This document shows, piece by piece, positions 23,213 through 27,289 of a stretch of DNA of 64,000 nt; the first letter of the stretch is position 1; each line of letters begins with the position of its first letter. Source of the stretch: Escherichia coli (lineage in GTDB: Bacteria; Pseudomonadota; Gammaproteobacteria; Enterobacterales; Enterobacteriaceae); assembly GCF_003334305.1 (NCBI RefSeq), contig NZ_QOWS01000026.1. One strand, 5' to 3'. A model generated the notes under the pieces. That model worked only from the letters and a program-made list of their open reading frames with translations, made no database searches and was not told the origin of the DNA. Both the position numbers and the translations under genes were made by a program.

Positions 23213-23431
23213 TTACCATTCCTCGCGCAGCTTACGCTGATATTCGACACCATCTTCCTCACACCCTTGCCAGATGCCAGGAACACTGGTTCTTGCTGTT
23301 TGCGATTGATTTATCAGGTATTGATCTACCGCTTCCCTTAATAGGTCCGCACGAGGAAGATTACGCTGCACCTCGAGATCATCAAGTTGCTTAATCACCT
23401 CATTCGATAAATCGAGTAAAATTCTGCCCAT
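23213..23431 (-). CDS. yiiF: Ribbon-helix-helix (CopG-like) small protein YiiF
   Basis: 72 aa from ATG 23431 ([39 protein letters not shown]...); the in-frame ATG at 23455 is an alternative start. Confidence 0.8.
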
Positions 23432-23540
23432 ATCTATACCTGCCAGAGAGTTCATAAATATCTCGCCAATATCATTTTTGAATCTATGGAGAGAAAAGTA
23501 CCCTTGCCGAATCTTTAAAGAAAGCTCATTTACGCATCAT

Positions 23541-23590
23541 TTTTTATTTTTGCGAGGCGTTTTCCAGATACGATGTAACAGTTGCAGTTA
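23541..23590 (-). repeat. Conserved upstream element, copy 1 (before yiiF)
   Basis: Core tttgcgaggcgttttccaga at 23549..23568 (plus strand); shares an extended ~45 bp match with copy 2, including gttgcagtt. Confidence 0.6.
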
Positions 23591-23673
23591 TTATAAGTTC
23601 AAGTAAAACAGCCTTGTATTAATACCAGAATAAGGGCATCTGTTTTTTTATATTCAAGAATGAAAAATTTTTT

Positions 23674-23892
23674 TCATTCCTTATGCTCCTTACACTGATC
23701 ATCAACACCAACTGTCTCACCCCTTTGCCTGCCTCTCTTTGCTTTACGCACCGGAAATTGCTGCCGCTCCAGATATTGCTCAACCGCTTCGCGTAAAATT
23801 GCAGATCGTGAAACCTTACGCCAGCCCCGAAGCTTGTTCAGCCGTTTAATTGCCTCTTCTGATAAATGAAGAAAAACCGTATTCATCGCCAT
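23674..23892 (-). CDS. yiiE: Ribbon-helix-helix (CopG-like) small protein YiiE
   Basis: 72 aa from ATG 23892 (MAMNTVFLHLSEEAIKRLNKLRGWRKVSRSAILREAVEQYL...) with AAGGTGG SD 5 nt upstream. Confidence 0.85.
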   Translation of the reverse strand: MAMNTVFLHLSEEAIKRLNKLRGWRKVSRSAILREAVEQYLERQQFPVRKAKRGRQRGETVGVDDQCKEHKE

Positions 23893-23979
23893 TACCACCA
23901 CCTTACATATATTACTCATTAATGTATGTGCGAAAATTACGCCGGAAAATCATTTAAAAAAAGCGGATTTTTGCATGTT

Positions 23980-24029
23980 GTTTTGTTTTTGCGAGGTGTT
24001 TTCCAGAAATAATAAGAGTGTTGCAGTTG
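23980..24029 (-). repeat. Conserved upstream element, copy 2 (before yiiE)
   Basis: Core tttgcgaggtgttttccaga at 23988..24007, then gttgcagtt at 24020..24028. Confidence 0.6.
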
Positions 24030-24318
24030 TTTCATTTATTACTCAAAAATGGTTTAGTTATCGCCCAGGATGAGTTATGGATGCTATGAATATATTATAT
24101 TCAGGGATGTTTATTTTTTGATTGGATCTTTATTTGCATAATCTGAATGGTGTACCCGAAAAATGTCAGCATCCTAACAGCACCCGGATTTAAGGTGAAA
24201 TTAATCATCCATCACAGACCGGTCAGTACTGCCACCAACCGGTCTTTACTTGTTCATCGTTATAATTTTGTTGGTAACAGTTCGGGAAACAAGGAATTCC
24301 TTCCGGAACCCCCCGGTA

Positions 24319-24411
24319 TCATCCGATAGCATTGACGTCAATCATCAGCGCGACGATGAGTTTTTTTAATCGCATCATAGGGTGGCGACGTTCAGCACGA
24401 TTACGGGTCAT
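24319..24411 (-). CDS. Hypothetical 30-aa ORF downstream of antitoxin gene
   Basis: ATG at 24411 preceded by CAGGAG with a 7-nt spacer; translation MTRNRAERRHPMMRLKKLIVALMIDVNAIG. Below the ORF-track size cutoff; no homology assessed. Confidence 0.25.
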   Translation of the reverse strand: MTRNRAERRHPMMRLKKLIVALMIDVNAIG

Positions 24412-24496
24412 AGCAAAACTCCTGGGCAGGCGACCACTATGCCGCTTTCACAGGAGTTCTGAATGCTAGTGCTTTCTGTATGGCATAACCATGCCT

Positions 24497-24787
24497 CTAA
24501 CGGTTAAGTGCTTGCAGCACATGTTGCGGATCATTGGCAATCGCTCGCAGCAAAGCCTTTGCAGGCCCGGTCGGTGAACGTCGCCCCTGCTCCCAGTTAC
24601 GCAACGTGTCTACGCTTACAGAAATAAGATCGGCAAATTTAGATTGTGACAACCCTGAAGCGCGGCGTATTTCTTTGATTTTCATAGCATCAACTTCAAA
24701 AGTCCGCGAAGGCTGTCGCGTTCCTTCAATAATTTCATTCATCTGGGCCATGCTGTGAGTCAACCGCTCAAAAAGTGCCTTATCCAT
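24497..24787 (-). CDS. XRE-family HTH antitoxin-like protein (HigA-like)
   Basis: 96 aa ORF; ..IKEIRRASGLSQSKFADLISVSVDTLRNWEQGRRSPTGPAKALLRAI.. is a typical XRE helix-turn-helix; start directly abuts the toxin ORF stop. Confidence 0.75.
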   Translation of the reverse strand: MDKALFERLTHSMAQMNEIIEGTRQPSRTFEVDAMKIKEIRRASGLSQSKFADLISVSVDTLRNWEQGRRSPTGPAKALLRAIANDPQHVLQALNR

Positions 24788-25099
24788 TTACCACCTCGTA
24801 TTTAACAACCGGAGCATTGCTTTTTCCTGGGGAGACAGATCATCTTTAATACCCTTACGATAAATAAGCAGTAATCTGATCTCATAATGTTTAACCTGAT
24901 GAAAGTAAATAACCCTGACACCAGCACGTTTCCCCTTTCCTCCTGAAACCCATCGAACCTTTCTTAACCCACCAGTTTCAGGTATTACCTCACCATAGTC
25001 AGGATTCAAGGCCAGGAAAAACTGAAAACGACTGAATTCATCGTCGGTCAGCAGTTTTTGAACATCTTCAGTAAAAATTTCCGTTTCGATGAAGAGCAT
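24788..25099 (-). CDS. RelE/ParE-superfamily (HigB-like) toxin-like protein
   Basis: 103 aa ORF MLFIETEIFTEDVQKLL...GGLRKVRWVSGGKGKRAGVRVIYFHQ...LLLIYRKGIKDDLSPQEK...; motif pattern matches RelE-like toxins that pair with a downstream HTH antitoxin. Confidence 0.7.
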   Translation of the reverse strand: MLFIETEIFTEDVQKLLTDDEFSRFQFFLALNPDYGEVIPETGGLRKVRWVSGGKGKRAGVRVIYFHQVKHYEIRLLLIYRKGIKDDLSPQEKAMLRLLNTRW

Positions 25100-25136
25100 A
25101 ATTATACGCCATTGGCTTAGAGTAACAATCCTTTTT

Positions 25137-25153
25137 GTACGTCATTGACGTAC
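25137..25153. promoter_or_regulatory. Perfect palindrome, candidate operator of the toxin-antitoxin operon
   Basis: gtacgtcaTtgacgtac (8-bp arms) 38 bp upstream of the toxin start codon. Confidence 0.4.
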
Positions 25154-25215
25154 CCTTGAAACCACTAGCTTACTGATAGTGCTCCAGCAAAACCACGTCT
25201 CTGCCGGGTTTGTCT

Positions 25216-25240
25216 TTAGATTTGCGAGGCGCTTTCCAGA
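25216..25240 (-). repeat. Conserved upstream element, copy 3 (before toxin gene)
   Basis: Core tttgcgaggcgctttccaga at 25221..25240, about 120 bp upstream of the toxin ATG, in the divergent intergenic region shared with the esterase gene. Confidence 0.55.
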
Positions 25241-25327
25241 TTTTTCACGCCCGTGAATTTCCCTGTATCCATCCAGCAAAAACGGGTGTATAAGACTGTA
25301 CATTCATACAGCAAAATAAGTTCTACT

Positions 25328-26236
25328 ATGGCACTGGAAAAAGGAATTGCAGAGTTAGTCGAAAAGTTTATCGCTGCGGGTCGCCCCTCATCGCGTCAAC
25401 AAAGTATTGCGCAGCGCAGGGAGGGCTATATCGCCAGCGCTGTCCTTGCGGGTGAGACAGAAACGCGGGTAGATATTCAGACTATCGAACTTGAAGGGAT
25501 GACCTTACGAATAGTGTCGCCGCTGAATGCCCCGACATTACTCCCGACGATAATTTATTACTACGGTGGCTGTTTTGTTAGCGGCGGGTTCGCAACTCAC
25601 GACAACCAGCTGCGCCAGTTAGCCTATTACGGGCAATGTCGGGTTATTGCCGTCCAGTATCGGCTGGCACCGGAACATACTTTCCCCGCCGCCCATGATG
25701 ATGCGCAACGAGGTGCAGAAATAGTCTGGCAACACGCCGAACGACTCGGCGTTGATAAACAACGTATAACTCTTGCCGGTGACAGTGCGGGCGGACATCT
25801 GGCGCTGGTAACTGCTTTGCGATTAAAGCGTGCTGGCGAGTGGCAACCGGCACAACTCATCTTAATTTATCCTATGCTTGATGCGACTGCGCATTTCGAA
25901 AGCTACATACGCAATGGTCACGATTACATCATCACACGCGACACTTTACTGAGCGGCTTTGAGATGTATCTGCCAGGCATTGAACGCAGGCATCCTGAAG
26001 CCAGCCCTCTTTGGCGCGATGATTTCAATGGCTTGCCACCTGTACATATCATTACCGCTGAATACGACCCACTTTGCGATGAAGGTGAAGCGTTGTATCA
26101 CCGCATGACAGGGCAAGGAGTGCAATGCACCTGCCAACGCTACCTTGGCGTTATCCACGGATTTTTTCAGTTAGGTGGTATCAGCGAGGCCGCGCGATCG
26201 GCACTACGGGATGTTGCCTGGAGAGCGGGAAGGTAA
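25328..26236 (+). CDS. Alpha/beta-hydrolase fold esterase/lipase (HSL-like family)
   Basis: ORF track 25253..26236 (GTG); first ATG at 25328 (MALEKGIAELV...). Contains GDSAGG nucleophile elbow, acidic residue in EYDPL and His in GVIHGF; oxyanion-hole region reads YYGGCF rather than HGGG. Confidence 0.7.
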   Translation: MALEKGIAELVEKFIAAGRPSSRQQSIAQRREGYIASAVLAGETETRVDIQTIELEGMTLRIVSPLNAPTLLPTIIYYYGGCFVSGGFATHDNQLRQLAYYGQCRVIAVQYRLAPEHTFPAAHDDAQRGAEIVWQHAERLGVDKQRITLAGDSAGGHLALVTALRLKRAGEWQPAQLILIYPMLDATAHFESYIRNGHDYIITRDTLLSGFEMYLPGIERRHPEASPLWRDDFNGLPPVHIITAEYDPLCDEGEALYHRMTGQGVQCTCQRYLGVIHGFFQLGGISEAARSALRDVAWRAGR

Positions 26237-26251
26237 CTTCGGACCTGGGCC

Positions 26252-26284
26252 CTGAAAAGGTTTTCAGATTGAAAACCTTTTCAG
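26252..26284. terminator. Strong inverted repeat between convergent esterase gene and yiiD
   Basis: 12-bp perfect arms gaaaaggttttc / gaaaaccttttc with loop agatt; no clear U-tract on either strand. Confidence 0.35.
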
Positions 26285-26299
26285 TCAAGTAAAACGCCC

Positions 26300-27289
26300 C
26301 TACTCTTCTTCGTTCCCGCCCTCTTCATACGGGCCAAATGGCTTCGCGGGCAGAACGATATACGTGCCTTCAAACACTGCACCCGGCGTCTCGTCGCCAA
26401 AGATTTCAACTTGCATCTGCACCCGTGCTTTTCGTCCGCGCGCCAGACGGTCGAGATCGCCGCTTAAGGCACCAAGGTCGGCTATCGCATGAGGTTTACC
26501 GCTAATCGGCTTGCTGTAGCGGATATGCGCATCCGCCAGAATAATCGTTCCGCCGAGATGGCGTTCGCGCAGCATCAGCCAGATAAGCCCCCAACCGGTG
26601 AGCGTCGCCAGCGAGAATAAACTCCCGGCAAACAGCGTATGGTGCGGATTCTGATTGCCGGTTTCCGGCATGGTGGTGATAAATTTTTGCCCGGTATATT
26701 GTTGAATGCGCACGCCCATTTTTTCGCTTAATGGAATGTGTTCATACCACGCCTGTTGCAGCTGGGCGCACCAGTCACCGCGATGCAGAATATCATCCAG
26801 AGTGGCAACGGGTTTAATCATCAAAAAATGGCGAATCGGCGTGGTAGTTGGGGTGGTGATCTCCCCCTGATTAATGAATCCCAGCTTGGCGAAAAACTCC
26901 ACCGCGTCTTCACGGGCGCTACAGGTCACGCGCTTAACGCCTTCCTGACGCGCCACCGACTCCAGGGTCATCGCCATCAGCGTTCCTAACCCTTTGTCCT
27001 GCACGTCGGGATGAACGGCCATAAAGCGAATGGACGCTTCATTGTCGGCATTAATATACAATCGGCCTACCGCCACCAGATTACCCTGCTCGTCGACGAC
27101 CATCTGGTGATGCGCCATCGCATCCCACGCGTCGCGTTCCGAACCTTTTGGTTGATGCAGGGGCTTACGCAACATTTCCCAGCGAAACTGATAGTAACGC
27201 TCTAATTCTTCTTCTGTTTGTGGAACCCGAAGGTGATACATAGCGATACTCTCTCTTGTTTCCCGTGACAACCCTGGAAGCTGGCTCAT
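26300..27289 (-). CDS. yiiD: GNAT acetyltransferase / thioesterase fusion protein YiiD (FabY)
   Basis: 329 aa [43 protein letters not shown]..., recognised as YiiD. Confidence 0.92.

Follow-up and report, generated by a model that had tools for sequence, protein, structure and literature searches.

Analysis of a 64-kb stretch of the Escherichia coli chromosome (hereafter the window, meaning the whole stretch of DNA that was analyzed) identified a two-gene module that is very probably a chromosomal type II toxin-antitoxin (TA) operon of the HigBA2 family. The module is read from the minus strand. According to the open reading frame (ORF) list, the gene for a HigB2-like toxin of 103 amino acids comes first (25099..24788, including the stop codon TAA at 24790..24788) and is followed by the gene for an antitoxin of 96 amino acids (24787..24497), which carries an XRE-type helix-turn-helix (HTH) and matches NadS, HTH_3, and HigA-2. 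In the reading that we favor, the toxin would be an mRNA endonuclease with a RelE fold, the NadS antitoxin would repress the operon through two operators and would be kept in excess over the toxin, and the locus would be ancestral. The features of the HigBA2 family that we found here are toxin homology and fold, the active site, the gene order, an HTH antitoxin, and, at the level of sequence, the operator architecture. An earlier reading made from the letters alone (the sequence-only reading) had proposed a toxin-first pair with an XRE-HTH antitoxin in HigBA-type order, and this was borne out, with the pair being of the HigBA2 kind.

The identity of the toxin is carried by both sequence and predicted structure. 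Its best anchor is Vibrio cholerae HigB-2 (VcHigB2) in the PDB, with which it aligned over residues 2-99, 98 residues without a gap (phmmer E value of 1.5e-19). When an AlphaFold2 model of the toxin built on 19 orthologues (predicted local distance difference test score [pLDDT] of 77) was searched with Foldseek, the top 11 matches were all VcHigB2 chains, with template modeling (TM) scores of 0.74-0.84; classical RelE toxins ranked after them (TM about 0.5), and K-12 HigB (PDB codes 5IFG and 6KML) gave a TM of 0.23-0.35 with E > 0.2. The Pfam RelE family PF06296 was matched at E <= 0.001 by 17 of the 19 orthologues (best, 1.9e-6), several of which carry precomputed matches to it. Homology searches could have placed the 103-residue protein in a family other than toxins; they placed it in a toxin family. 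In the ungapped alignment, which has an offset of 2, R49, R62, Y80, and K82 of the toxin correspond to R51, R64, Y82, and K84 of VcHigB2, and among the 19 orthologues R62, Y80, and K82 were invariant while R49 was at least 90% conserved. Alanine substitution of any one of these four VcHigB2 residues cuts activity 170- to 3000-fold (PMC5416850). The alignments and the model indicate that the toxin is a member of the HigB2 family of RelE-fold toxins, and by homology it would act as a ribosome-dependent mRNA endonuclease that uses R49, R62, Y80, and K82.

A different activity, such as poisoning of gyrase in the manner of ParE or inhibition of RNase III in the manner of Salmonella SehA, is very improbable for this toxin. 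Targets do diverge within the RelE/ParE superfamily, and SehA is an RNase III inhibitor that has neither nuclease activity nor a canonical active site and is 40% identical to E. coli HigB (PMC12817084). SehA, however, comes from a different family, its residues Y53, D61, and H88-Y98 have no counterpart here, and the complete RelE-like active site of VcHigB2 is kept. We also ruled out the toxin as a homologue of K-12 HigB (PF09907) or SehA, given the low TM scores against K-12 HigB and the lack of the SehA key residues in the Salmonella orthologue. Salmonella SehAB lies near fdhE in Salmonella and was considered as an identity for the module as a whole; it was rejected because neither the residue numbering of SehA nor its Y53, D61, and H88-Y98 fit the Salmonella orthologue (P0110), SehB is much longer than the antitoxin here, and SehA is related to K-12 HigB.

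The antitoxin gene is named nadS in RefSeq (WP_000356397.1). Its product passed the NCBIfam NadS equivalog NF041265 over residues 5-89 (60.7 bits, with a cut-off of 60), and it matched both Pfam HTH_3 (E value of 3e-9) and HigA-2 in the PDB (E value of 1.8e-8, residues 31-89 only). A literature search yielded no defining paper for NadS. The N terminus is conserved among orthologues, and two of the residues with which V. cholerae HigA2 (VcHigA2) contacts bases, N72 and R77, are retained as N64 and R69. By homology, the N-terminal segment would neutralize the toxin and the C-terminal HTH domain would dimerize. The protein was identical in every E. coli strain looked at. K-12 strain BW25113 has another nadS gene, RS26030, which NCBI's Prokaryotic Genome Annotation Pipeline (PGAP) annotates outside this locus and which was expressed in a reporter-transposon screen (PMC12350097); it may be an orphan relative of the antitoxin described here.

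The intergenic region upstream of the toxin gene is 228 bp long and contains two candidate operators. The first, O1 (25137..25153, centered at 25145), is the palindrome GTACGTCATTGACGTAC, which consists of 8-bp arms around one central base (GTACGTCA-T-TGACGTAC) and can be written as GTACG-TCATTGA-CGTAC. The sequence-only reading had described it as a perfect 17-bp palindrome and a plausible operator for an HTH dimer, and on both points our analysis agrees. Perfection at this arm length is not unusual as such: the window has nine perfect palindromes of the size of O1, where Markov simulations gave 2.45, and about 0.009 would be expected in the 228-bp intergenic region. The significance of O1 beyond chance comes from its conservation and from its homology to the VcHigA2 operator, which has been footprinted and crystallized and reads TGTACGC-N5-GCGTACA, the crystallized oligonucleotide being Opr17, GTACGCTTGGTGCGTAC (PMC11006873). 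O1 and Opr17 share the 17-bp frame GTACG-N7-CGTAC.

Conservation was assessed in a set of 80 related loci, most of which contain the 15-bp core TACG(C/T)CA(T/A)TGAC(G/T)TA upstream of the toxin gene. In most relatives from the Enterobacterales the core occurs twice, with the distal copy centered at -46..-62 and the proximal copy at -12..-15 from the ATG. Allowing up to two mismatches, the motif was found only twice in the window, at O1 and at a second site (25105..25119). This second operator, O2 (25104..25120, centered at 25112), is an imperfect palindrome that reads CTAAGCCAATGGCGTAT from 25120 to 25104 on the minus strand (CTAAGCCA-A-TGGCGTAT), with six of eight arm pairs matched and two mismatches to the family consensus; its center is 33 bp from that of O1, and it ends 4 nt 5' of the toxin ATG. 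When 15 syntenic upstream regions were aligned, conservation was confined to two blocks, O1 and TAnTAT-AAGCCAATGGCGTA, and the best-conserved stretch was the block TAnTATAAGCCAATGGCGTA at O2, while the 4-5 nt that separate O2 from the ATG vary freely. Among E. coli strains the perfect part of O1 ranged from 15 to 21 bp (the 21-bp form in a strain of sequence type 131 [ST131] being TTGTACGTCA-A-TGACGTACAA), with the core constant in the strains examined. These comparisons and the frame shared with Opr17 strongly support the assignment of O1 as the antitoxin operator, and a dimer of the antitoxin would bind O1 and O2 and thereby repress its own operon. Regulation of the divergent alpha/beta-hydrolase gene through O1 was rejected as an explanation for the palindrome: both O1 and O2 persist in relatives that do not have the neighboring hydrolase gene, and we therefore assign them to the TA operon. 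A promoter scan of 24300..25400 found no promoter on the plus strand.

The arrangement of translation signals points to an excess of antitoxin. The minus strand before the toxin ATG reads ...GCCAATGGCGTATAATT-ATG (over a longer stretch of the coding strand, GGGTACGTCAATGACGTACAAAAAGGATTGTTACTCTAAGCCAATGGCGTATAATT-ATG), and the 20 nt before the ATG pair with the 3' end of 16S rRNA at -1.5 kcal/mol, compared with -2.1 kcal/mol at random positions; the sequence-only reading was thus correct that the toxin has no Shine-Dalgarno (SD) sequence. The antitoxin has a strong one, GAGGTGG, at 24797..24791 on the minus strand, within the last toxin codons (R-W), with a predicted anti-SD duplex of -8.0 kcal/mol. 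The toxin stop codon abuts the antitoxin ATG (24787..24785) in the sequence TAAATG (24785..24790, minus strand), as had been read from the letters alone. The translational coupling suggested on that ground is in keeping with a junction that is conserved in the family, but strict coupling is not required, because the antitoxin has its own strong SD sequence inside the last codons of the toxin. In a survey of 73 usable loci, for which antitoxin starts were called as ATG only, the toxin was without an SD sequence in 69 (median, -1.5 kcal/mol), the antitoxin had one of -5 kcal/mol or lower in 63 (median, -7.1 kcal/mol), and in 66 the junction placed the antitoxin ATG at -4..+2 nt relative to the toxin stop. 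Since toxin initiation is weak, the antitoxin SD sequence is strong, and the antitoxin ATG abuts the toxin stop, antitoxin should exceed toxin despite the toxin-first order. An SD-less toxin followed by an antitoxin with a strong SD sequence and possibly coupled translation thus appears to be a conserved way to keep the antitoxin in excess.

The locus is also old. The module is flanked by fabY and fdhE, whether the hydrolase gene is present or not, in Citrobacter (five species), Enterobacter, Salmonella enterica subsp. arizonae, Kluyvera, Leclercia, Lelliottia, and Klebsiella spallanzanii, and synteny holds on the fdhE side in Siccibacter; synteny was seen in at least eight genera besides E. 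coli. Across syntenic loci, identities were 90-98% for the flanking proteins, 85-88% for the antitoxin, and 68-76% for the toxin. The order is toxin first in 78 of the 80 related loci. These data indicate that the locus is ancestral at fabY...fdhE in the Enterobacteriaceae and is not a recent insertion. The rate of nonsynonymous substitution (dN) ranged from 0.16 to 0.24 for the toxin and from 0.07 to 0.11 for the antitoxin, and omega was about 0.05-0.12 where calculable; the rate of synonymous substitution (dS) was saturated or undefined for most pairs, leaving dN and a few omega values as the usable measures. By these measures, both genes are under purifying selection, with the toxin evolving about twice as fast.

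Within E. coli, the module is present in 2,636 of 5,426 complete genomes (about 49%), and of 60 carriers that were sampled, about 56 have an uninterrupted toxin ORF, with the catalytic residues preserved. The interval between yiiE and fabY (24290..26299 in the window) holds differing cargo among E. coli strains, here the TA module and the alpha/beta-hydrolase gene. A search of K-12 for remnants of the module found none: homology ends at 24289 and picks up again at 26300, and the 474 bp that K-12 has in between are unrelated. In O157:H7 the interval is occupied by two hypothetical genes, and the breakpoint falls within the antitoxin gene, 26 nt from its 3' end; that of strain Z1323HEC0475 contains a SehAB-like pair composed of a different HigB-family toxin and a 151-amino-acid HTH protein. 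Comparison of these intervals indicates that K-12 and O157 have lost the module or had it replaced. Among genomes that keep it, the toxin has been inactivated repeatedly. In the O25b:H4-ST131 strain 2822 (L086), an extra G at toxin nucleotide 164, in a GGGG run within the codons of the GKGKR loop, shifts the frame, so that the truncated toxin ends short of R62, Y80, and K82. This strain has the same antitoxin as the window, its O1 is the perfect 21-bp form, and its O2 center is altered from CCAATGG to CCAGTGG. The toxin gene is disrupted by IS1 in strain CH4797 and has premature stops in Citrobacter werkmanii, K. spallanzanii, and Lelliottia. In all of these toxin-inactivated cases the antitoxin is intact. 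The locus offers a natural series for the decay or taming of a chromosomal TA module, with intact, ST131-frameshifted, IS1-disrupted, toxin-pseudogene, and deleted or replaced states.

The variable cargo of this interval, which across strains includes another TA pair, also bears on the physiological role of the module. With the same biochemical mechanism, the module could serve in anti-phage abortive infection or in the exclusion of mobile elements, not in stress response or persistence, a role that we regard as distinctly unlikely. Distant homologues are common on plasmids (893 records, with Acinetobacter plasmids as the largest group at 307 of 893) and occur in few phage records, and both proteins match phage families (phrog_5869 at 5.8e-27 and phrog_2104 at 8.1e-26). 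PADLOC, however, gave 0 matches for the toxin and only generic HTH matches for the antitoxin (E >= 7e-7), and long vertical synteny across genera is unlike typical defense islands.

How the operon would be transcribed is less straightforward. The hexamer TATAAT (25106..25101) lies directly 5' of the toxin gene, with a single T between it and the ATG. The sequence-only reading had pointed to this hexamer, and it is indeed there; used as a -10 element, though, it cannot give an mRNA containing the toxin start, because it is 1 nt from the ATG, and most of it is the right arm of O2, a second operator copy that had been overlooked. More precisely, TATAAT is composed of the O2 right arm (GCG-TAT) and nonconserved A/T positions, and an exact match to the hexamer is confined to E. 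coli. Transcription by sigma-70 RNA polymerase begins about 7 nt downstream of the -10 element (range, roughly 6-10). Together with TTGTTA (25128..25123) and a 16-nt spacer, TATAAT makes up a promoter-like sequence on the minus strand, P2 (25101..25128), whose hexamers flank O2 and whose predicted start is at about 25094, in toxin codon 2. P2 was the sole sigma-70-like match in 24300..25400, agreeing at 10 of 12 positions, and the chance expectation for such matches in this region is 1.4.

It is scarcely credible that TATAAT is the -10 element of a leaderless toxin mRNA in E. coli, an arrangement that would explain the missing SD sequence. The V. cholerae homologue does look this way: the PhigBA2 oligonucleotide Opr45 reads TTGCCA-17 nt-TACACT-TCCTAT-ATG (PMC11006873 supplement). 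The higB2 ATG thus begins about 7 nt beyond the -10 element, a spacing that predicts a leaderless toxin mRNA. Four relatives (L049, L062, L071, and L076) share this -10-to-ATG geometry, and a leaderless mRNA is compatible with the gap of 4-7 nt in several relatives with single or tandem operators. In E. coli, however, the 1-nt gap would set the start at about 25094 and give a transcript without the AUG, and ahead of codon 95 the toxin ORF offers no other start in frame.

In relatives, the best sigma-70-like promoter has its -35 element, TTGAC(G/T), inside O1 and its -10 element 16-17 nt downstream, directly 5' of O2. The distance from this -10 element to the ATG is 20 nt in the Citrobacter/Enterobacter clade and 29-33 nt in others, and the resulting SD-less leader is largely O2. 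At the corresponding position in E. coli, the inferred promoter P1 (25119..25145, minus strand) has the -35 element ATGACG (25145..25140, within O1), a 15-nt spacer, and the -10 element TACTCT (25124..25119), with a predicted start at about 25112 that would give a 13-nt SD-less leader. Most of 14 syntenic relatives have TTGACG-16-TAnTAT at this position, and E. coli differs by three weakening changes: a flip of the central base of the palindrome, which turns TTGACG into ATGACG; a spacer shorter by 1 nt (15 nt, not 16); and the -10 element TACTCT, or TGCTCT, which is without the -11 A, in some strains. On the minus strand, an out-of-frame ATG occurs at 25112..25110 in the center of O2 (CAATGG), near the predicted start of the ancestral promoter. 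A 14-codon ORF beginning there would overlap the toxin start (MAYNYALHRNGNFY, within 25099..25113), quite possibly by chance.

Since the predicted start of P2 near 25094 lies in codon 2 of the toxin gene, mRNA from P2 could express the antitoxin only. We put forward as a hypothesis, one that we consider unlikely, that the TATAAT promoter makes such an antitoxin-only transcript, and whether it does so is the main point of interest of this locus. An extension of this hypothesis, unlikely but worth serious consideration, is that the module has been rewired or partly domesticated: P1 would have decayed, P2 transcripts would be mostly antitoxin-only, and the antitoxin would act mainly on its own, either as an HTH regulator that controls its own expression or as a toxin buffer. 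Consistent with this idea, P2 is the only promoter-like match in the region and interdigitates with O2 as V. cholerae PhigBA2 does with its operator, with 1 nt instead of 6 before the ATG. The E. coli changes to P1 point the same way, as does the recurrent, independent inactivation of the toxin alongside an antitoxin that stays intact. A precedent is found in K-12 hicAB, where P1 drives both genes and an antitoxin-repressed downstream P2 cannot express the toxin (PMC11594946). On the other hand, a single promoter-like match is at chance level, the exact TATAAT is confined to E. coli with half of it imposed by the conserved O2 arm, and most sampled carriers retain an intact toxin ORF with its catalytic residues.

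The promoter comparisons also suggest a possible history, although we think it unlikely. In this reading, the promoter hexamers of the family are embedded in the operator, with TTGAC(G/T) at the center-right of the palindrome and TAnnnT in the right arm. A leaderless ancestor with one operator would have gained O1 and P1 in the Enterobacterales, where the distance from O2 to the ATG was shortened; in E. coli, P1 would then have decayed and a near-consensus promoter would have arisen at O2, leaving a naturally muzzled TA module whose toxin comes from rare P1 transcripts only. Judging from the V. cholerae sequence, the ancestral state in this history would likely be a single operator between -35 and -10 and a toxin mRNA without a leader. 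If the history is true, the E. coli module stands partway in evolution from an active TA module to an orphan NadS regulator.

Several observations weigh against our preferred reading of the module as a HigBA2-family TA operon with an mRNA endonuclease toxin. The E. coli toxin itself scores only weakly on PF06296 (E value of 0.0062, 17.2 bits) and matched no model in an NCBIfam search, and toxins of the RelE/HigB superfamily can have non-nuclease targets, as SehA does (PMC12817084), though SehA belongs to a different family. The N-terminal 30 residues of the antitoxin have no detectable similarity to the neutralizing segment of VcHigA2 (residues 1-37), and the other two of the four VcHigA2 base contacts differ, with R68 replaced by D60 and E71 by R63. 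The family promoter P1 looks decayed in E. coli, and with P1 degenerate, toxin expression may be very low. Finally, a literature search by protein accession and family names found no study of this E. coli locus.

The module is poorly visible in current annotation. Of 60 genomes sampled, 56 have the intact toxin listed in RefSeq as a "hypothetical protein"; the remaining genomes carry the label "RelE/ParE family toxin," and the two such copies that were inspected, named "type II toxin-antitoxin system RelE/ParE family toxin" by PGAP, proved to be frameshifted pseudogenes. (An example of the PGAP toxin annotation is at L001 3989..4300.) With the intact toxin labeled hypothetical, routine E. coli TA inventories miss the module, and the gap in annotation extends to some 2,400 complete genomes of the species. 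The family has a solved structure and a known mechanism, and this member of it is carried by about half of the complete E. coli genomes. It is an ordinary two-gene module of the well-studied HigBA2 family, and its practical value is modest.

The window represents E. coli chromosome with the order fdhE, yiiF, yiiE, the TA module, the alpha/beta-hydrolase gene, fabY (yiiD), dtd, and yihY. An Rfam scan of 24000..25600 at E <= 1 matched no RNA family, and a terminator scan found no minus-strand terminator 3' of the antitoxin gene; the sole terminator match in that scan is on the plus strand, within the toxin ORF. Another perfect 17-bp palindrome, TGAATATATTATATTCA, lies at 24087..24103, within the 577 bp without annotation that separate yiiE from the stop codon of the antitoxin gene. 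The adjacent genes yiiF and yiiE (23213..23455 and 23674..23919, minus strand) are paralogous genes of the CopG/ribbon-helix-helix type, and the segments upstream of them (23510..23592 and 23948..24031) are also paralogous, with 77% identity. Both genes sit between the antitoxin gene and fdhE in E. coli and are missing at the syntenic locus in most other genera. By this comparison they look like a later insertion or duplication, and they may be orphan antitoxin-like regulators.

Among the closest known systems is HigBA2 of V. cholerae (PDB codes 5JA8, 5JA9, 5JAA, 8A0W, and 8A0X). The two modules share the toxin-first order, the toxin fold and its four catalytic residues, the C-terminal XRE-HTH domain of the antitoxin, the 17-bp operator frame, and an operator that lies between -35 and -10, with the -10 element overlapping its right arm. 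They differ in that the toxins are only about 35-45% identical, the N-terminal segment of the antitoxin is not detectably similar, and the E. coli antitoxin has D60 and R63 at two of the four base-contact positions. V. cholerae HigBA2 is reported with a single operator, whereas the E. coli locus has two predicted ones that are 33 bp apart, and the -10 element is separated from the ATG by 6 nt in V. cholerae but by 1 nt (counted from TATAAT) in E. coli. The V. cholerae higBA2 pair lies in the superintegron, whereas the E. coli module sits at a conserved housekeeping site.

HigBA2 of the Acinetobacter baumannii plasmid pAB120 belongs to the same named family and is likewise toxin first. Its toxin is a ribonuclease that is neutralized through complex formation, and the antitoxin represses its own operon, an effect that is stronger with the complex, with no separate antitoxin promoter found (PMC5906591). 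This system is plasmid-borne, unlike the E. coli module, and stabilizes plasmids, its operator was not mapped in that study, and Acinetobacter plasmid and phage matches are more distant (about 45-48% identity). K-12 HigBA (YgjN/YgjM) and Salmonella SehAB resemble the E. coli module in being toxin first, with a toxin of the RelE/ParE superfamily and an HTH antitoxin, but their toxins are of a different family, their antitoxins are longer (about 138-151 amino acids), and SehA targets RNase III. K-12 hicAB encodes unrelated proteins (HicA and HicB), and P2 of the module described here is a sequence prediction only; hicAB is nevertheless also toxin first, and the predicted arrangement of P2 and O2 would work in the same way.

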